From: a virus
Taxonomy: Duplodnaviria; Heunggongvirae; Uroviricota; Caudoviricetes
Reading direction: 5' to 3' (one strand)
Length of the DNA stretch: 64,000 bases
Virus record (IMG/VR): IMGVR_UViG_3300014598_000002
Part shown: positions 47,579 to 56,178 of the stretch, piece after piece
How the letters are laid out: each line of letters opens with the position of its first letter
How positions within the stretch are numbered: position 1 is the first letter of the stretch
The notes under the pieces: generated by a model
The model's input: the letters and a program-made list of their open reading frames with translations, nothing else
The model's database searches: none
Told to the model about the DNA's origin: nothing
Program-made: the position numbers and the translations under genes

Positions 47579-49648
47579 TTACTTACACTTGTTATTTAAA
47601 TAGCTTCTAATATATAGATCAAGCAACTTGCTTAGCTGTTTGTTAACTTCATCATGTTTTTGAGGGCTACGCATTTTAGAAAGATGTCGCTCAAGAAATT
47701 TTGAAGGCAACTTTATAACCAATTTGTTATGGTTGTCATAAAGTTCTTTTACCCAGATTAGCTCTTTATGTTTTTCTAAGTTTTCAGAGTGATCCCTATT
47801 TATAATGAAAGCTAGCCTACCATAATCTTTAAATAAATATGAATTTACTTGTCTATATTCATCAGCACCTAACGTTTTGTAGTTTTTGATTTCGAATACA
47901 ACTTGTCGAGATTGGTAATCAGTCAATATCCTTTTCCAGACAGGTGTGTCGGCAAGGTTTGTTGCAATAATGTCTCGCTGCTGTAGACCATTTTTGTTTG
48001 AATGGAGTTCAATATTGGTCAAATTCGTCGCAAACAATATTTTAATAGCTTTCAAAGCCCATGCTTCAAAATCAACAGCCCCTTCCTTACCTTCTGGGAT
48101 ATTATTTAATTCTTGAAGAAGAGCACCGATCCGTTGTTTTCGTTGTTCTTCTGATACGGAGCTAACTTCGATATCGTATTCATCGTGGATATCGTCAGCT
48201 GTTTCAGGAGTAATGTCTGACTCATGAACACTTAATGCAAGCCAATAGCAAGGATGTAGCAGAAGCTTGGAGCCTGGTGTAAACTCTTTTTCTGGTTCTT
48301 TTCCATCATGACAAAACACATATGATGAGGACTGCTGATTGTATAATCCAAAAAAACCAACACTATACAAACGTTGGATCACCTGAACAGGACCTTCAAA
48401 CAAAAGGATGTCCTGTAATTTCATTTTGTCATTAACTTCTTTTATATCAAATGCTTGGCTTATTATTTCAGAGGCTTCCGCGATGGTAAAATCTGGTCTT
48501 TTATTGCCAAAAAGCGATGTAAATATATCTAGTGCAGGGAATACATTTTCATATTCTTTTAGTAAGTCGTTAAGCCTGTTTTGAGATATTGTGTTTGCAG
48601 TGGCTTTTATGTCATCAATTATTATTTTTGTGCGATCGTGAGTTGCGGCCCTCAGGAAAGCATCATTTAATAATACCAAAATATCTCTCGGTCTATATAA
48701 TGTAAGCTTAAGTGCTTCTTTAAAACCCGTATTTGACTGTAATTCATTAGCGGTGTACGCATTCCAAACTCGCGTGTTATTTTCTATGGTTGAGTTAAAT
48801 GCAACTCTCATTCTGTTACAAACCAAATTGAAGAGATTGTATTCGTCCCAATGTAATCTTAATACCTGTCCTTCAATGTTTCTGGTAAAATCAGGGTCCA
48901 TTTTAGATATGGCTCTATGGATATTGTCTCTAACGAAAGCAAATGCGATAACTTTTTCTTGCAAATTTTGTTTTATATCAATAACAGACTGAATGAAACC
49001 GTCAACGATAGCAACCCCTAAATCATCTGGAGTGTATCCTTCATCTAGCCTGTCAGCAAAAATAACGAATTGATGGTTTGATTTTGAAATAGCTTCGAAT
49101 AAAACCTCTTCTAGTAAATCTAATTCAAAATTATCTGATAAATCTGATATTCTTGTAGCCGGTTTAACATCTTTTCCAGTATCAAGGATAGATATTAATT
49201 TTTTCCTTATTTTACCACTTATGTTTTGTCTTTTAGCTCCCCAAGATAATAAGTGTTTCTCTACACTTTTATAGTCTAGATCATTTTTCATCCTATAGTG
49301 GCTTGCTATTTCGGAAAGTAATTCCATATAAATCGCATAGCGCCAAGCTAGTTTGCTTCCGGCTTTAATATGCAAATAATTTTCACCGAAAAGTGAGACA
49401 ACATCTCTTAGACCAATAATTTGTTCTTCAATAGGGCTAATGGTCATCACATGCGTTTTAGGTTTTGCGTGCCAATGTTTTGACAGCATATGCACTAATG
49501 CACTTTTGCCAGTGCCTCTGCGACCTACAACTATGCATCGATCATACGACTCTAAAAGAGCTTTATAATCAGTTGTTTGCCAGAATGAGGCTTCAAGCAT
49601 TTTGGCATCGTGTTCTGCTCTGATATCCCCTAGAACGTTACCTTTCAT
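47579..49648 (-). CDS. P-loop NTPase (Walker A GRRGTGKS, Walker B VIFADRLDE) with C-terminal Mrr-like PD-(D/E)xK nuclease module
   Basis: 689 aa, strongly AT-rich. The C-terminus FEAWALKAIKILFATN...RDIIATN...RQVVFEIKNY fits the Mrr_cat-like D...ExK pattern. Has its own terminator. Confidence 0.6.
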   Translation of the reverse strand: MKGNVLGDIRAEHDAKMLEASFWQTTDYKALLESYDRCIVVGRRGTGKSALVHMLSKHWHAKPKTHVMTISPIEEQIIGLRDVVSLFGENYLHIKAGSKLAWRYAIYMELLSEIASHYRMKNDLDYKSVEKHLLSWGAKRQNISGKIRKKLISILDTGKDVKPATRISDLSDNFELDLLEEVLFEAISKSNHQFVIFADRLDEGYTPDDLGVAIVDGFIQSVIDIKQNLQEKVIAFAFVRDNIHRAISKMDPDFTRNIEGQVLRLHWDEYNLFNLVCNRMRVAFNSTIENNTRVWNAYTANELQSNTGFKEALKLTLYRPRDILVLLNDAFLRAATHDRTKIIIDDIKATANTISQNRLNDLLKEYENVFPALDIFTSLFGNKRPDFTIAEASEIISQAFDIKEVNDKMKLQDILLFEGPVQVIQRLYSVGFFGLYNQQSSSYVFCHDGKEPEKEFTPGSKLLLHPCYWLALSVHESDITPETADDIHDEYDIEVSSVSEEQRKQRIGALLQELNNIPEGKEGAVDFEAWALKAIKILFATNLTNIELHSNKNGLQQRDIIATNLADTPVWKRILTDYQSRQVVFEIKNYKTLGADEYRQVNSYLFKDYGRLAFIINRDHSENLEKHKELIWVKELYDNHNKLVIKLPSKFLERHLSKMRSPQKHDEVNKQLSKLLDLYIRSYLNNKCK

Positions 49649-50037
49649 GTATTACCCTTTTAGCGTTAAAAGGAGGGGGCAATGGCCTTTGTAGACTTGA
49701 GTTCCATTTGCCTGATGCCATCCTCATCAAACTTCTTCCGTTTTCCCGAAGAGGGGGGAGATTAATGTATCATTTTTAACGGGTTACACAAGAATATGAC
49801 TTCTTAATCTAGGAGCTGAGCGTTCTTCAGGAAAAAAATAAGCATGAATGACAGCGGTTGTAGCCTTAGATTTTAAGGTGGTTACGTTCTTAATTTATTG
49901 AATTACCAATTAACTTTGAACACTATCAATTTAGCGTCTCTAAGCGTCTCTACAACCCCTGTGAATACTGCTTTTACGCCTTTTCAACTTTGGGAAAATA
50001 ACACCAATAAGAAAACAATTTGTTTAATAGTGTGATC

Positions 50038-51723
50038 ATGAATACAGCCCTTTCCATCATTGACGCTATCACCCCAAACACTGATATCGACTACCGGCAG
50101 GAAATGAACGTCATCCACGAAATTGTGGCCGAGTGCGAGAAAGAGATCGCATTCATGCATCAGGTTCACGACTTCGTTTATGGCGACGAACGCCACAACA
50201 TGATTAACCGCCTGCTGCGACTCAACCACCGGCCGGATGACGAGCGCACACGCTTTAACAGAGCCTGGCTGGACAAGGTCGACCTTGAATGGGTGAAACA
50301 GAATATCTGGGCCGAGTACTGGAAGAAGGTCACGGATATGACAAACGTTCTGCTGATCATGCCAGCTTCCCGCCGCGACGAGTGGCGTGAGCAGTTTATC
50401 GAGGGCAAGCAGGAGACCATCAGGACTGACAGAACCGGCTACCAGATGAAGGTTAAGGAGTTCGTTGGTGTGCCGGAGTTCAAAGCAGAAACGGTCATCC
50501 CAACGATGCTCAATCTGCTGAATGACAGGCACAAATATCTCTCTGAGCGCGTGTATGGCTTGTTTAAAGCGCTGAGTCCTGCCCACAAGACCAATAAGAC
50601 GAACGGCTTTAGCGAGCGTCTGATCATCGCCAACTGCATTTCCGAGTTCTGGCGGGACAGCGTCAGCGTGAACTACCGGAAAGAGGACTACATCGACGAC
50701 CTGCGCGTCATGCTTCATTTCTTAGCACACAAAGAGTTCATCACCATCAACCGCACAACTGAGATGCTTTCAGCTGCGTACCGGGCAAACGACTGCCAGA
50801 CCGGTGACTGGATGAATGTCGACGGAAACCTGATGCGCGTGAAGATGTTCAAGAACGGCAACGTTCACTTTGAAATACATCCTGACGTGGCCTGGAAGCT
50901 GAATGAGGTGCTGGCTTACAGTATGCCTGCAGCAATCCCGGCGCCATGCCGTACTGCACCCAAAACACGGGCACCAAAAGAGTTCGGGTTAATCCAGAAG
51001 ACGATCTCCGAGCCGGTTCGTACTGCGCTGCGCGACGGGCGATTCAGCAAAGACAAAGGCGTCTGGTACTTCTCTGATTCCAACCTACAGAAGTCACAGG
51101 TGGAAGAGCTTGAGCGCACACTGAACTTCATTGGCGGCGTGCAGGAGAAAAAGCACTGGCAGTTCCCGTATGAGATCGGCCATACGCTCAATACGATTGT
51201 GGCCACCGGCTTAATACCGGATACAAAATCACACCAGTTCTACCCTACCCCACGTTTGATAGCGGAGTACGTTGCCAGAGCCATCGAGCTGAAGCCAGGT
51301 GAGAAGCTGCTGGAGCCTGAAGCCGGGCGCGGAGATCTGCTGGCCTGCATCGACGCCAATCCGGAAGACGTTACCTGCATAGAAGTCGCACCTCTCTTCG
51401 CTGATATCCTGCTTGGCAAGGGGTACACAAATACGGTCTGCTGCGACTTCATGAAGTGGTCTGAGGACAACGCAGGTTATCAGTTCGACAAAATCGTCAT
51501 GAACCCGCCCTACTCTCTTGGCCGTCACAGAGAGCATACGCTGGCCGCGCTGGAGCATCTTAAAGTCGGCGGGCGACTGGTGGCTGTACTGCCGGGTGAT
51601 GCGCCAGTTCTGAACTGGGTGTCGCTGGATAATTACGTTTATGCCAAAGGGAAGTCGTTTACTGACGAGTTTGAAGACACCGGAATCACTGTCAGCGTAT
51701 ACGTTTTCAAACGTGTAAAATGA
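50038..51723 (+). CDS. orphan DNA N6-adenine methyltransferase with large N-terminal domain (motif I EPEAGRGDL, motif IV NPPYS near C-terminus)
   Basis: About 400-aa N-terminal region of unknown function, then FxGxG-like and NPPY motifs 60 aa from the C-terminus. Motif B immediately upstream. Start at ATG 50038; the track uses TTG 50020. Confidence 0.6.
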   Translation: MNTALSIIDAITPNTDIDYRQEMNVIHEIVAECEKEIAFMHQVHDFVYGDERHNMINRLLRLNHRPDDERTRFNRAWLDKVDLEWVKQNIWAEYWKKVTDMTNVLLIMPASRRDEWREQFIEGKQETIRTDRTGYQMKVKEFVGVPEFKAETVIPTMLNLLNDRHKYLSERVYGLFKALSPAHKTNKTNGFSERLIIANCISEFWRDSVSVNYRKEDYIDDLRVMLHFLAHKEFITINRTTEMLSAAYRANDCQTGDWMNVDGNLMRVKMFKNGNVHFEIHPDVAWKLNEVLAYSMPAAIPAPCRTAPKTRAPKEFGLIQKTISEPVRTALRDGRFSKDKGVWYFSDSNLQKSQVEELERTLNFIGGVQEKKHWQFPYEIGHTLNTIVATGLIPDTKSHQFYPTPRLIAEYVARAIELKPGEKLLEPEAGRGDLLACIDANPEDVTCIEVAPLFADILLGKGYTNTVCCDFMKWSEDNAGYQFDKIVMNPPYSLGRHREHTLAALEHLKVGGRLVAVLPGDAPVLNWVSLDNYVYAKGKSFTDEFEDTGITVSVYVFKRVK

Positions 51724-51781: not shown

Positions 51782-52471
51782 ATGAGCGAAAAATCGAGAA
51801 TTACATTCGCCAGCGTTGATCAGGCGAAGCTGCCATTTAATTTAGTGCTACAGGGGAACGCAGGAAAGCCTGCCGGAACCATCAAAATCGACAAGGAGCT
51901 TGTGACGTTCGAAGGTAACTTTGATGAATCGGCGCAGGTTTTTATCGAATATCTGGCACGCCGTTGGAGCCAGCAGTGGAGAGACCTAGAGAAACGCGCC
52001 AATGAGTTTGACCGGTTCATGGGCGCAATGGACACAGCAAAAGAGGCTCTGGCTGCCGGCACTCCGTTAGATCTGGAGTCGCTTTTCAAAGGAGAGATGG
52101 CCTCTGCGATGTTCGCCACCATGTTCGCAGGTGAGTTCGTCCGCAGCGGCGCCAGAAATTACCTTGAGCTGGGGTACAACGTTCCTGAAATGGGCGAGTT
52201 TACCGTCACCATCCAGCGCAAAGAAGGTAAGACGCCAGGCGAACGTATCGCTGAACTTGAGGCCGTTGTGGATCAGCGTAACGGCGAGTGCGTCCGTTTG
52301 ATCAACGAACGTGATGCGCTGCGCGAAGAGCAGCTAAACAAAGGCTCGAACACACGCGCGGCCGCAGACATCTACTTCCAGTTGGTTGAGGAATGCCAGA
52401 TCCCGCCAGGCGGCTCTTTGGTTGAGTACGTTCGCGAATTGCAGGATAAAGCAGAGAGGTGCGCGGCATGA
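51782..52471 (+). CDS. hypothetical protein
   Basis: 229-aa ORF with an AGAGGTAAACAC RBS. Confidence 0.5.
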   Translation: MSEKSRITFASVDQAKLPFNLVLQGNAGKPAGTIKIDKELVTFEGNFDESAQVFIEYLARRWSQQWRDLEKRANEFDRFMGAMDTAKEALAAGTPLDLESLFKGEMASAMFATMFAGEFVRSGARNYLELGYNVPEMGEFTVTIQRKEGKTPGERIAELEAVVDQRNGECVRLINERDALREEQLNKGSNTRAAADIYFQLVEECQIPPGGSLVEYVRELQDKAERCAA

Positions 52472-52749
52472 ATGACCTGCTTGTCGAGCGAGTCTCCGCT
52501 TTTGTTAAGTCCCCGCTGGACAATCCTCTCACCCGCGGTAAGCAGATGGAGCTGGCAAGGTGGTTTCTGCATATCCATGAGCAGATGGAAGTTTTTAAAC
52601 AGTTGCCGGATCTGCCCATTACAGACGGCCATGTTCAGCAGGTGATTAACAGTCATGAAAAAGGCTGGGCGATGATTGTGCCGTGCAAAATTACCTACGA
52701 GCTGGCTAAGGAAGTGCAGGCTAACAGAGCAAGGAGTAAGGAAGAGTAA
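52459..52749 (+). CDS. hypothetical protein
   Basis: 96 aa overlapping the upstream stop. Confidence 0.4.
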   Translation: MRGMNDLLVERVSAFVKSPLDNPLTRGKQMELARWFLHIHEQMEVFKQLPDLPITDGHVQQVINSHEKGWAMIVPCKITYELAKEVQANRARSKEE

Positions 52750-52757
52750 CTATAAAG

Positions 52758-53123
52758 TTGGGTAATGCCGTTTCGCTGTTTTTTACAGCATTACTGGAAG
52801 GTTTCAATTATCGCTTTTGTCCGGTCTGGGATAATGCGCTGGATACGCTTATTGAGGAAGGAACGCTGCTTGAGGTGCGAAATGGGATCGCGCTGTTTGA
52901 GCGTGGCGCCCAGCTATATGAAGTGTTCGTCGGGGCTGGCTTCAACCACTTTGGGCATCTTATTAGCTTGAATACCAAAGCCATCGACGAGAGCGTCATG
53001 CGCCGTCCGTCGTTCCGTGTAATGGATAAGCTGCAACGTCATGTAAATGCCGAATTACTCCGCGTAGCCAAAGAAAAAGAACGAGAGCTACAGGCGATGA
53101 TTGGATCGCTTATCGCTGAGTAA
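52758..53123 (+). CDS. hypothetical protein
   Basis: 121-aa ORF. Confidence 0.45.
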   Translation: MGNAVSLFFTALLEGFNYRFCPVWDNALDTLIEEGTLLEVRNGIALFERGAQLYEVFVGAGFNHFGHLISLNTKAIDESVMRRPSFRVMDKLQRHVNAELLRVAKEKERELQAMIGSLIAE

Positions 53124-53214
53124 ATGAAGGCCGCTATTGTGGCCTTTAACAATTTGTTTTCTACCTTTTCTTATCTGTGAAAATAACTACATCCAGAAAA
53201 CAACGGAGTTAAGA

Positions 53215-53856
53215 ATGTCCCGTATTTCCAAAGCCCATATGTTTGCCGCTGGCGCTCATGGCGGCGTTGGCCAGAAAAGAAAATATACCGGTGAAGACTA
53301 CATCAACCACCCGGTTGCTGTCCGCGAGATTGTTGCCTGGCATGGTGGAACCGTAGAGATGCAGATCGCGGCGCTTCTGCATGATGTGGTTGAAGACACC
53401 CATGTCACCATAGAGATGGTTCGTGAGCACTTCGGTGAGCGCGTAGCCGAAATGGTTCTGGCTCTTACCAACATTGCCAGACCAGAAGACGGCAATCGAA
53501 TACAGCGTTTCATCATCAACGTCCGGGAGCTGCAGCAAAGCCTCGACATGCAGACGCGCATGATCAAGCTGGCTGACCTGCTGGACAATACCTCTTCTAT
53601 TGTGAGTCGCGACCCTGAGTTTTCAGCCATCTACCTCGCAGAGAAAGAGCTGATGCTGGCCGTACTCTTTGACGGCAAGGAGATTGGTGCCGATGCCGGT
53701 GTTGTCGAGTACCTGGAGAAAAAAGGCATAGAGCATTCGTTGCTGATAAACGCCCGGGCGATGGTGACGAAAGGCATTGCCAGTCTGCAACCGGTACACA
53801 CCAAACGTTATGAAAAACACAAAGCGCTGATCTGGGGCGCGTGGGAGGCTGCATGA
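53215..53856 (+). CDS. HD-domain small alarmone hydrolase (RelA/SpoT-homolog hydrolase domain, (p)ppGpp hydrolase-like)
   Basis: HGGVGQKRKYTGEDYINHPVAVREIVAW...AALLHDVVEDT closely follows the SpoT/Mesh1 HD motif HxxQxRKSGEPYIxHPLxVA...AALLHDVIEDT. Internal ATG start with a GGAG RBS. Confidence 0.7.
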   Translation: MSRISKAHMFAAGAHGGVGQKRKYTGEDYINHPVAVREIVAWHGGTVEMQIAALLHDVVEDTHVTIEMVREHFGERVAEMVLALTNIARPEDGNRIQRFIINVRELQQSLDMQTRMIKLADLLDNTSSIVSRDPEFSAIYLAEKELMLAVLFDGKEIGADAGVVEYLEKKGIEHSLLINARAMVTKGIASLQPVHTKRYEKHKALIWGAWEAA

Positions 53857-54404
53857 AGGTCGAAAAAATAGATGTTCTTTCCTTTGTGCTGACGGATTTG
53901 GAGCGTCTCGACCCGGTACGCGTAATGATTGAAAACTACGAGCCTGGCAAGGGAAGAGTCACCATCACCTGCTATGGGAAAGCGTGGACTGCTGCCTGGT
54001 TCGCGATGGGCGGTGACGATGTGCAGACGTTTATTAACAGAGTGAGCAAAGATTATTTGATTGGTTGCCTCGACCCTCAACTGCTGAGTACGGTCGACGA
54101 TGACAACGACGCAAACGTGCTTTTCGTCAAATCCGAAATCATAAAGTTGCGCAGGGAGAGAGAAATCGACGCAGAACAGGCCCGCAATATGTGGGACGAG
54201 GCAGAAAACGCTGATGACGTAAAAGAAAGCTGCTGCTGTTTCGGTGTCGGCAACGAACTGCTGAGTCTGTTTGGTGACGATCCGTGGTATGCCGGTTGGC
54301 CAACGGTGCCAAACCCCAGATACCAATACCTGGAACGTATCGTGAACGCGGTACGTGATGGGCTGAAAGAGCTTCACGATCAGGCGAGAGAAGCACTCGG
54401 TTAA
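53853..54404 (+). CDS. hypothetical protein
   Basis: ATG with a GGGAGG RBS overlapping the upstream stop. Confidence 0.5.
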   Translation: MKVEKIDVLSFVLTDLERLDPVRVMIENYEPGKGRVTITCYGKAWTAAWFAMGGDDVQTFINRVSKDYLIGCLDPQLLSTVDDDNDANVLFVKSEIIKLRREREIDAEQARNMWDEAENADDVKESCCCFGVGNELLSLFGDDPWYAGWPTVPNPRYQYLERIVNAVRDGLKELHDQAREALG

Positions 54405-54442
54405 GTGCTATAGTCAGGTGCTTTTATATTTATGGAGTAAAT

Positions 54443-55141
54443 ATGAAAAATATCCTACTGGCATCATTGTTGGTAGCATCGCCGGCTGCTTATGCAGCCA
54501 GCTTTGACTGCCAAAAGGCTTCGACAGAAATCGAACACAAAATCTGCGATAACGAACGCCTGTCAAAATTAGACGAACAACTTAGCGCTACCTATTCCAA
54601 CGCACTCAAAGCAAACCCGGGGGACGCAGACACCTTAAAGACGGTTCAGCGTCAGTGGGTAAGTATGCGTGGAAAACTCACTGGTGATAAGGCTCTGGAG
54701 CTGGCTTACCTAATCCAAATTAATGGCCTCAAGAGTTTGGATGGTTCGGCCAGCACAGCGGTGGTCAATGAGACACCGAAGCCGGTGCAGAAGCAGCCTG
54801 AAGTTCAGGAAAAGACAAGCAAGGCAGACGCAAAGCAGGCTAAGAGCGGTGATGAGCTAACTCTGGAGTCATTCCGAGCTAAGTATATTGAAGTTGACGG
54901 TGAATACTACAGCACGACATCCCTTCCCAGAGGGAGTTCGTTCTTATTCACCTGCGCCAGTCGCATTGCCGATGACCAAGTTAATGTCTGGAAGAAGTAC
55001 GCAGCAAAAGAGGGCAAGATCGACCTTTTCTTTGAGCTTGAGAGTCGAATACACACCGCGATGCTGAATGCCAATTTTCAGAAGCTGAATAGTGATTTAA
55101 CTAAAACAGGCATTTGCGATCTGATTACCGCTGTTCCGTAA
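54443..55141 (+). CDS. periplasmic DUF1311/LprI-like protein (signal peptide)
   Basis: Signal MKNILLASLLVASPAAYA, then FDCQKASTEIEHKICDNERLSKLDEQLSATY resembling the DUF1311 Cys motif. Confidence 0.5.
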   Translation: MKNILLASLLVASPAAYAASFDCQKASTEIEHKICDNERLSKLDEQLSATYSNALKANPGDADTLKTVQRQWVSMRGKLTGDKALELAYLIQINGLKSLDGSASTAVVNETPKPVQKQPEVQEKTSKADAKQAKSGDELTLESFRAKYIEVDGEYYSTTSLPRGSSFLFTCASRIADDQVNVWKKYAAKEGKIDLFFELESRIHTAMLNANFQKLNSDLTKTGICDLITAVP

Positions 55142-55196
55142 GCCAGATAAGGCCACTATTTGTGGCCTTAAACAATTTGTTTAATTAGTGGTGTAA

Positions 55197-55400
55197 TTAT
55201 TGGAATCCCAGGCGAACTAAATCCATTGGGCAGAACAGACCTTCCACACCTTCGATAGACACGCAGTCAGAACGGCGTAATTGTTCTTCTGATTTGCCCT
55301 CACCGCAAATTTCCTTGATGACTCCCGTTGCACCACTCGTTGCCACCATCACACGGCTGCCGGTAGTGATAGCGTTACGGTTGCGATCATAGGTTTTCAT
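55197..55400 (-). CDS. hypothetical small protein
   Basis: 67 aa. Motif B in minus orientation lies about 85 nt upstream. Confidence 0.35.
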   Translation of the reverse strand: MKTYDRNRNAITTGSRVMVATSGATGVIKEICGEGKSEEQLRRSDCVSIEGVEGLFCPMDLVRLGFQ

Positions 55401-55589
55401 CGTTTCCTCCTTTCACTTGGGTCAAATCATGTGTCAAAAAATGCCGTTTTCCATGTATGTGCGATTTGCAAAATCTCAAGTGCCGAAACAAATTGTTTTC
55501 ACCACCTTGTTATTCCCTTAACCCGCAAAGTTGACCGGTACTGCAATAAGCACTACTGTTTATGTATACAGTATTGTGGGGCGGGAAAA

Positions 55590-55856
55590 ATGGGCAGCAA
55601 GAATTCCAAATATGATATCGTCTATATAGGCGAAGCACTCAAACACCTGATACCAGGACAGTTCGTTTTCTTCCAACGTGAAAAAGAATACGGTGGGGGA
55701 TTCTGGCTTGGCAAAACGCATGATGATGGGTTCGAATTTGTGCTGGAGCAACCCACTTCACTTAGTTACGGGCTTGCGTATCTGATCAGATTGTCGAGTG
55801 TCGAAGCCAGGTATATGGAGTTTGTTGATGACATAGACGACTTCAAACTGACCTAA
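55590..55856 (+). CDS. hypothetical protein
   Basis: Internal ATG. The upstream part of the track ORF overlaps promoter-like motifs. Confidence 0.35.
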   Translation: MGSKNSKYDIVYIGEALKHLIPGQFVFFQREKEYGGGFWLGKTHDDGFEFVLEQPTSLSYGLAYLIRLSSVEARYMEFVDDIDDFKLT

Positions 55857-55941
55857 TCATCCCTTAAACATCTTGTTTTCTGCCTTTTGTTATTTGAGAT
55901 AATAACACCAATAAGAAAACAAATTGTTTAAGGAGTTGATC

Positions 55942-56178
55942 ATGTTCGGAACCGCAAAAGACATCATCGAAAAGCTGGAGAACTACCCAGAAGACGAGCC
56001 GCTGCTGATGGTGATGTGGCACAAGGAAGATGTAGGTGAAGTGCGACCAGACCTGACTGACGAACAGTGCGTTCAGGTTTTGCGAAAAATCAAAGAGTGC
56101 CATGACGCCAGCGTCGGCGTGAATTGGGATGTCATCTCTGACACGGCCGACACTCTGTTTCCAAAGGAGAAGGCATGA
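55942..56178 (+). CDS. hypothetical protein
   Basis: Motif B plus an AAGGAG RBS immediately upstream. Confidence 0.45.
   Translation: MFGTAKDIIEKLENYPEDEPLLMVMWHKEDVGEVRPDLTDEQCVQVLRKIKECHDASVGVNWDVISDTADTLFPKEKA

Follow-up and report, generated by a model that had tools for sequence, protein, structure and literature searches.

A stand-alone alarmone hydrolase of an Enterobacter SSU5-type phage-plasmid, orthologous to PaSpo(SSU5) and with a probable role in counter-defence

The closest described relative of the protein analysed here is SSU5_099 (YP_006906731.1) of Salmonella phage SSU5, which is the PaSpo(SSU5) of the Hauryliuk and Atkinson laboratories and was placed in the PaSpo subfamily of small alarmone hydrolases (SAHs) by Jimmy et al. 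(2020, PNAS, PMC7229694), where it is described as a 'stand-alone phage-encoded SAH'. In E. coli co-expression assays this enzyme neutralises all five validated toxSAS, namely CapRel, PhRel, PhRel2, FaRel2 and FaRel (PMC7229694, Table 1), abolishing the toxicity both of FaRel, which produces (pp)pApp, and of CapRel, PhRel, PhRel2 and FaRel2, which pyrophosphorylate the tRNA 3'-CCA. Against FaRel2 even leaky expression of PaSpo(SSU5) is sufficient, an effect that its authors attribute to removal of the tRNA modification, and the protein serves as the standard helper for the over-expression of PhRel2 and CapRel-SJ46. On the biological side, Jimmy et al. proposed that phage-encoded alarmone hydrolases let incoming phages bypass alarmone-mediated abortive infection (PMC7229694).

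Comparable activities have been described for other SAHs. That of PVP-SE1 likewise neutralises five of five toxSAS (PMC7229694), and so does, universally, ATfaRel of Cellulomonas marina, a protein of the same fold family as the SAH described below, whose neutralising effect needs the aspartate of the HD motif and is abolished by a D54A substitution (PMC7229694). Later work showed that four of the five toxSAS pyrophosphorylate the tRNA 3'-CCA end instead of making alarmones. ATfaRel restores, in vitro, the aminoacylation of tRNA so modified, and MESH1 likewise neutralises toxSAS and strips the pyrophosphate from tRNA; hydrolysis of tRNA-PP in vitro is described explicitly for these two enzymes, but not for PaSpo(SSU5).

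The stretch of 64,000 nt that was analysed, hereafter the window, belongs to an SSU5-type phage-plasmid. It is colinear with phage SSU5, with 96.6% identity across 65% of its first 25 kb when these served as the query. The 4 kb surrounding the SAH gene, at 52000-56000, were 100% identical to CP027605 and NZ_CP010386, two circular, non-mobilizable IncFIB plasmids of 118-122 kb from the Enterobacter cloacae complex and E. hormaechei. Phage genes (major capsid, portal, terminase, tape-measure, tail and tail-fibre) coexist in the identical plasmid of 121.7 kb with plasmid and replication genes (repA, parB, DNA polymerase III alpha, primase and helicase), as anticipated by the label of phage-plasmid given in a sequence-only reading of this DNA. 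The same plasmid carries genes of nucleotide metabolism, encoding NrdAB, thymidylate synthase, DHFR, a MazG-like pyrophosphohydrolase and PhoH.

The SAH gene itself was found uninterrupted, with 213 codons before its TGA stop, and the following features were located in it and at its 5' side:

53215..53856 (+), coding sequence of the SAH (213 aa, PaSpo-type), orthologue of SSU5_099 / PaSpo(SSU5), with the ATG at 53215 and the TGA at 53854-53856
53205..53208 (+), Shine-Dalgarno sequence GGAG, 6 nt 5' of the SAH ATG, by direct reading of the sequence
53125..53148 (+), terminator-like hairpin with 10 pairs in its stem and then a T-rich stretch, in the interval that separates the SAH gene from the ORF before it; a match to consensus only, the count of such sites in the region being at chance level

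The sequence-only reading had proposed at this place a stand-alone protein of about 213 aa with the (p)ppGpp hydrolase motif of RelA/SpoT homologues (RSH), and both of the motifs that it quoted were present in the ORF, RKYTGEDYINHPVAVREI as residues 22-39 and AALLHDVVEDT as residues 52-62. A longer version of the protein starting at a TTG at 53137, which appeared in the ORF-finder listing, was rejected because the annotated orthologues begin at the ATG. No convincing sigma-70 promoter was detected ahead of the gene in a consensus scan of the region, where promoters and terminators were both counted at or below shuffle expectation. The encoded protein is identical to WP_040110263.1 and AVO85442.1, both of which are labelled 'HD domain-containing protein'.

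When compared with SSU5_099, 210 of the 213 residues of the protein were identical (98.6%), and the three substitutions from the window to SSU5 (R76H, Q107E and G208N) do not fall at any conserved column. At the nucleotide level the two genes share 98.1% identity, with eight synonymous and three non-synonymous codon differences, none of them at catalytic codons. The likeness extends to the locus, as both proteins are stand-alone, have the same length and are encoded at the same position of an SSU5-type phage-plasmid between the same neighbours, with a DUF4942 methyltransferase gene at the 5' side and an ATGA-coupled ORF of 183 aa, an LprI-family gene and a YdfZ gene at the 3' side. On the other hand, PaSpo(SSU5) belongs to a Salmonella background and the element of the window to Enterobacter, and an ORF of 689 aa with a P-loop stands 5' of the DUF4942 methyltransferase gene in the window, whereas SSU5 has Ant and a hypothetical gene there. 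Carrying over the assignment of the SSU5 protein, a transfer that is safe at this level of identity, the window SAH would belong to the PaSpo subfamily.

It was also observed that identity to SSU5 is unevenly distributed in this part of the element, as the value for the SAH gene exceeds both that of the coupled downstream gene (88.2%) and that of the 4-kb region (92.5%). The SAH gene is thus more similar to SSU5 than its surroundings are, and would therefore be either under unusually strong constraint or part of a recent recombination patch.

Searches with domain profiles and structures assigned the protein to the RSH hydrolases. The Pfam HD_4 profile matched with E=4.2e-19 and 69 bits, compared to a gathering cut-off of 27 bits, and the HD profile with E=2.6e-6; no other Pfam domain passed its curated cut-off, and a sub-threshold match to FliS (E 0.079) was dismissed as due to chance. 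TIGR00691 (spoT_relA) matched with E=7e-25 at profile positions 1-123 only, and PRK11092, the SpoT equivalog, was covered in its N-terminal part, in such a way that in both cases the coverage was confined to the first 130-150 profile positions or so. PHROG 990, annotated as 'metal-dependent phosphohydrolase', was also matched (E=1.8e-52). When all the chain sequences of the PDB were searched with phmmer, every match with E<1e-7 was to the hydrolase domain of a long RSH, to MESH1 or to a bacterial SAH, and a profile built from 26 sequences returned the same exclusive set, with E values down to 4e-24. The motif assignment thus held, far above chance level, in these searches, among them the HD_4/RelA_SpoT hydrolase search proposed together with it.

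Among the solved structures the top matches (E 1e-13 to 1e-24) were long RSHs, which include E. coli SpoT, the Rel proteins of M. tuberculosis, S. equisimilis and T. thermophilus, and SpoT of A. baumannii (7qpr). The HD and ED motifs of these enzymes are identical to those of the window SAH, although they carry in addition synthetase, TGS and ACT domains, whereas the window protein is confined to the hydrolase domain and, with its 213 aa, lies within the range of about 170-220 aa of the SAH class, without synthetase, TGS or ACT domain. Human and Drosophila MESH1 (3nr1, 5vxa and 3nqw) are, like the window SAH, single-domain RSH hydrolases in which all the active-site residues align, but they are eukaryotic proteins of 179 aa, with about 30% identity over some 130 residues, and their reported physiological role is that of NADPH phosphatase.

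The residues of the active site were located by two alignments. In the HMMER alignment with human MESH1 (3nr1), R22-K23 corresponded to R24-K25, H32 to H35, H56-D57 to H61-D62, E60-D61 to E65-D66, D121 to D122 and N125 to N126, in the residue numbering of the MESH1 sequence, the PDB chain being without Met1. In a pairwise alignment with E. coli SpoT (NC_000913.3), residues H32, H56, D57, E60, D61, D121 and N125 corresponded to H48, H72, D73, E76, D77, D139 and N143, respectively. The corresponding codons are:

53278..53283 (+), codons of R22-K23, aligned with the substrate-phosphate-binding R24-K25 of MESH1 in 3nr1 and invariant in 26 homologues
53308..53310 (+), codon of H32, predicted first metal ligand (H35 of MESH1, H48 of SpoT) from the alignments
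53380..53397 (+), H56-D57-V-V-E60-D61, predicted HD metal ligands and ED catalytic pair, from the MESH1 and SpoT alignments
53575..53589 (+), D121 to N125 (in LADLLDN), predicted last metal ligand and conserved Asn, from the MESH1 and SpoT alignments

All nine residues (R22, K23, H32, H56, D57, E60, D61, D121 and N125) were invariant across 26 diverse homologues from phages and phage-plasmids, recovered from IMG/VR and GenBank; the His/Asp metal ligands, on whose presence the sequence-only reading had made its case depend, are among them. By these comparisons the protein is a single-domain RSH hydrolase with a complete predicted active site. A single-sequence AlphaFold2 model was too poor for interpretation (mean pLDDT 44, pTM 0.33).

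The SAHs of other phages are also stand-alone RSH hydrolases with the same catalytic residues as the window SAH, but they either belong to another SAH subfamily or are just 28-50% identical to it, and with 166-189 aa they are shorter, as they do not have two segments that are proper to the phage-plasmid clade:

53674..53724 (+), insertion, roughly 17 residues long (G154-K170), present only in SSU5-like and Klebsiella-type phage-plasmid SAHs and missing from the shorter SAHs of other phages
53788..53853 (+), the last 22 or so residues (192-213), a C-terminal tail restricted to the phage-plasmid clade and lying outside Pfam HD_4 and every match to a solved structure

Such more distant SAHs were found in 268 phage records, including phiKZ-like phages, Erwinia/Dickeya jumbo phages and coliphage Bas82. 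Close relatives, with at least 80% protein identity, are encoded by about 170 plasmids of PLSDB; the sampled records, all of 107-115 kb, belong to Enterobacter, Salmonella, Citrobacter, Escherichia and Klebsiella.

The stop codon of the SAH gene overlaps the start codon of the next one:

53853..54404 (+), ORF of 183 aa, PHROG 3451 (function not assigned), its ATG overlapping the SAH stop (ATGA, 53853-53856) and with its own GGGAGG at 53843-53848

Given this arrangement both proteins are probably co-translated. The 183-aa ORF gave no match in Pfam or PADLOC. The pair was kept in all the relatives with an SAH at least 86% identical (loci L001-L019 and L032-L034), whereas the 183-aa gene was not adjacent to SAHs of 53-69% identity; in Klebsiella-type phage-plasmids, whose SAHs are 53-60% identical, the SAH gene is directly 5' of the DUF4942 methyltransferase gene. 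Therefore, the coupling apparently reflects the synteny of close relatives and not an obligate partnership, and a role of the 183-aa protein as an obligate functional partner or toxin was rejected on account of this distribution and of the missing domain matches. With respect to its family, it was observed that PHROG 3451 (287 positions) is split over two proteins of the window, as residues 1-103 of an ORF of 229 aa (51782-52471, +) match positions 1-103 of the profile and the 183-aa ORF matches positions 105-285, so that a single protein would be expected in some phages.

Regarding the 5' side, the DUF4942 protein (567 aa, 50020-51723, +) has a C-terminal DNA-methyltransferase domain, according to matches to PADLOC mad2, MTase_II and PHROG 6263, and its neighbourhood with the SAH gene is conserved even in the Klebsiella-type elements with 53-60% identical SAHs, in the reverse order. 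The ORF of 689 aa (47579-49648, -) shows a P-loop/STAND-like N-terminus, with weak matches to AAA_16, ORC-CDC6-like and nSTAND3 profiles, and a C-terminal region matching the candidate-defence model PDC-M36A of PADLOC (E 1e-13), as well as PHROG 13260; the identical plasmids list it as 'HypX' or as a hypothetical protein, and the Ant found in its place in SSU5 is an anti-repressor. This ORF looks like swapped candidate defence cargo beside the methyltransferase/SAH block. The block also encodes a phage N6-adenine methyltransferase and DUF1380 and DUF5983 proteins in addition to the DUF4942 methyltransferase, and is likely rich in anti-restriction and accessory functions.

Taken as a whole, the data are best explained if the protein is a stand-alone SAH of the RelA/SpoT superfamily, the orthologue of PaSpo(SSU5) in an Enterobacter phage-plasmid, which would act in trans in counter-defence, and we consider this reading very probable. 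No result spoke against the enzymatic assignment. The identity of this SAH and its proposed toxSAS-neutralising function are, through the SSU5 protein, already published and not new: the action against toxSAS-based defences suggested by the sequence-only reading agrees with the neutralisation of five toxSAS by the 98.6%-identical protein, and its idea of a bypass of abortive responses had been put forward before by Jimmy et al. (PMC7229694).

From the biochemistry of the family, a divalent metal (Mn2+ in the characterised SAHs) would be held by H32, H56, D57 and D121 and would, together with the E60-D61 pair, hydrolyse 3'-pyrophosphate esters, the 3'-pyrophosphate being presumably cleaved from (p)ppGpp, (pp)pApp and tRNA-PP. 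As four of the toxSAS modify the 3' end of tRNA, tRNA-PP is probably as relevant a substrate as (p)ppGpp or (pp)pApp. In the phage-plasmid the enzyme would constitute a broad counter-defence that acts in trans by repairing the target, reversing the damage caused by toxSAS/CapRel-type abortive infection systems encoded by the host or by prophages through the stripping of the pyrophosphate from tRNA and the degradation of (pp)pApp and (p)ppGpp. A lowering of the (p)ppGpp of the host by the enzyme may come in addition. Such a use in counter-defence is plausible because CapRel defence systems, which have been found in Salmonella phage SJ46, Enterobacter chengduensis and Klebsiella pneumoniae, share the host range of these elements, and because the block around the SAH gene appears rich in anti-restriction and accessory functions. 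In our search of the literature no paper was found that linked deletion of the SAH in SSU5 or a relative to altered plating on hosts bearing toxSAS or CapRel, nor one that demonstrated counter-defence by a phage SAH in a real infection.

The finding is of value chiefly for annotation: the public records say only 'HD domain-containing protein' or 'metal-dependent phosphohydrolase', yet a protein with 98.6% identity is a characterised toxSAS-neutralising SAH. Moreover, the SAH is conserved at 80% identity or above in the enterobacterial plasmids mentioned, those sampled being SSU5-like in size, and therefore SSU5-like elements are probably equipped at all times with a broad-spectrum antidote against abortive infection of the CapRel/toxSAS type. 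This bears on the spread of such elements, some of which have resistance cargo, and on the prediction of host range in phage therapy.

A different use of the same activity would be the manipulation of the host stringent response, in which the SAH would keep (p)ppGpp low and so allow translation, rRNA synthesis and DNA replication to go on during lytic growth or low-copy plasmid maintenance. This is compatible with counter-defence, and several observations fit it: SAHs of the superfamily hydrolyse (p)ppGpp and an active site of the MESH1/RelSeq type is intact in the window SAH, Jimmy et al. (PMC7229694) mention a link between infection by phages and a build-up of alarmones, and the many genes of nucleotide metabolism in the element would suit a reprogrammed nucleotide physiology of the host. 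However, the host SpoT itself degrades (p)ppGpp, the sole functional data on PaSpo(SSU5) are those on toxSAS neutralisation, and our literature search turned up no (p)ppGpp values from lysogens of SSU5-like elements or from infections by them. We consider it rather unlikely, although it deserves some weight beside the counter-defence reading.

More speculative are the roles that could be imagined for the clade-specific segments and for expression outside the lytic cycle. The insertion at 154-170 and the tail might fit the SAH for a macromolecule, pyrophosphorylated tRNA, as its substrate or for contact with a partner protein, and the enzyme might also be made in the plasmid state, giving the host resistance to T6SS effectors that produce (p)ppApp (Tas1-like) or an altered stringent-response-dependent tolerance, as a benefit of lysogenic conversion instead of, or besides, counter-defence. 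To this set of ideas we give little credence.

The protein could also be a metabolic phosphatase that tunes the redox or cofactor pools of the host, as an NADPH phosphatase like human MESH1, with which it shares the type of active site; MESH1 is reported as such an enzyme, and promiscuity can occur in orphan SAHs of bacteria. Against this, the phenotype shown in vivo for PaSpo(SSU5) is toxSAS neutralisation, and the activity, conceivable as a side reaction, is very improbable as the function of the protein.

As for genes that could form a toxin-antitoxin module with the SAH, the 559 ORFs of 50 aa or longer in the six frames of the window were searched with phmmer at maximum sensitivity, using full-length RelA and SpoT of E. 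coli and their synthetase domains, and the SAH alone was found (SpoT, E=1e-16), no RSH synthetase domain being significant among these ORFs (best E 0.16). A RelA/SpoT synthetase was also missing from the annotation of the identical 121.7-kb plasmid, as given in a PLSDB gene table that is incomplete. Since no RSH synthetase appeared in either, the SAH seems to be stand-alone and not an antitoxin, and a cis toxSAS-antitoxSAS module of type IV was rejected, the neighbouring genes included. Therefore, that the SAH guards the cell against a toxSAS of the same element is hardly tenable, despite the TA-like overlap of its stop with the next start and the precedent of ATfaRel, a PbcSpo-subfamily SAH that is the antitoxin in an operon with its toxSAS FaRel (PMC7229694), whereas the window SAH has no toxSAS in cis, neither Pfam nor PADLOC relates the 183-aa product or the proteins encoded upstream to an RSH synthetase, the SAHs of the Klebsiella-type relatives do not have the 183-aa gene beside them, and the SSU5 enzyme was itself called stand-alone by Jimmy et al. 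(PMC7229694).

Some additional observations were made on related genes and elements. A paralogue of 235 aa, 68-69% identical to the window SAH, was detected at L020:3989-4696 and L021:141-848 (IMG/VR contigs UViG_2713896899_000007 and UViG_3300045988_137643, respectively), in which the HD motif is replaced by HG (AALLHGVIEDT), with loss of the metal-binding and catalytic Asp while the other active-site residues are kept. The copy in L020 is located just 3' of a methionyl-tRNA-synthetase-like ORF, and the same 71-kb contig has an intact SAH of 87% identity (L010). Judging from its motif, the HG paralogue may be an inactive, substrate-binding pseudo-enzyme.

In NZ_CP010386.1 cargo was located at 26974-27843, 59458-60389, 66854-78031 and 87482-88279, comprising a MazG-like 'phosphoribosyl-ATP pyrophosphohydrolase', a YafO-family toxin, a DUF1778/GNAT toxin-antitoxin pair and a Tn-like insertion (TniB/TniQ, the chromate efflux gene chrA and IS4321). 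The window also contains a tRNA-Asn (GTT) gene at 847-921 (+), which could bear on defences that target tRNA.
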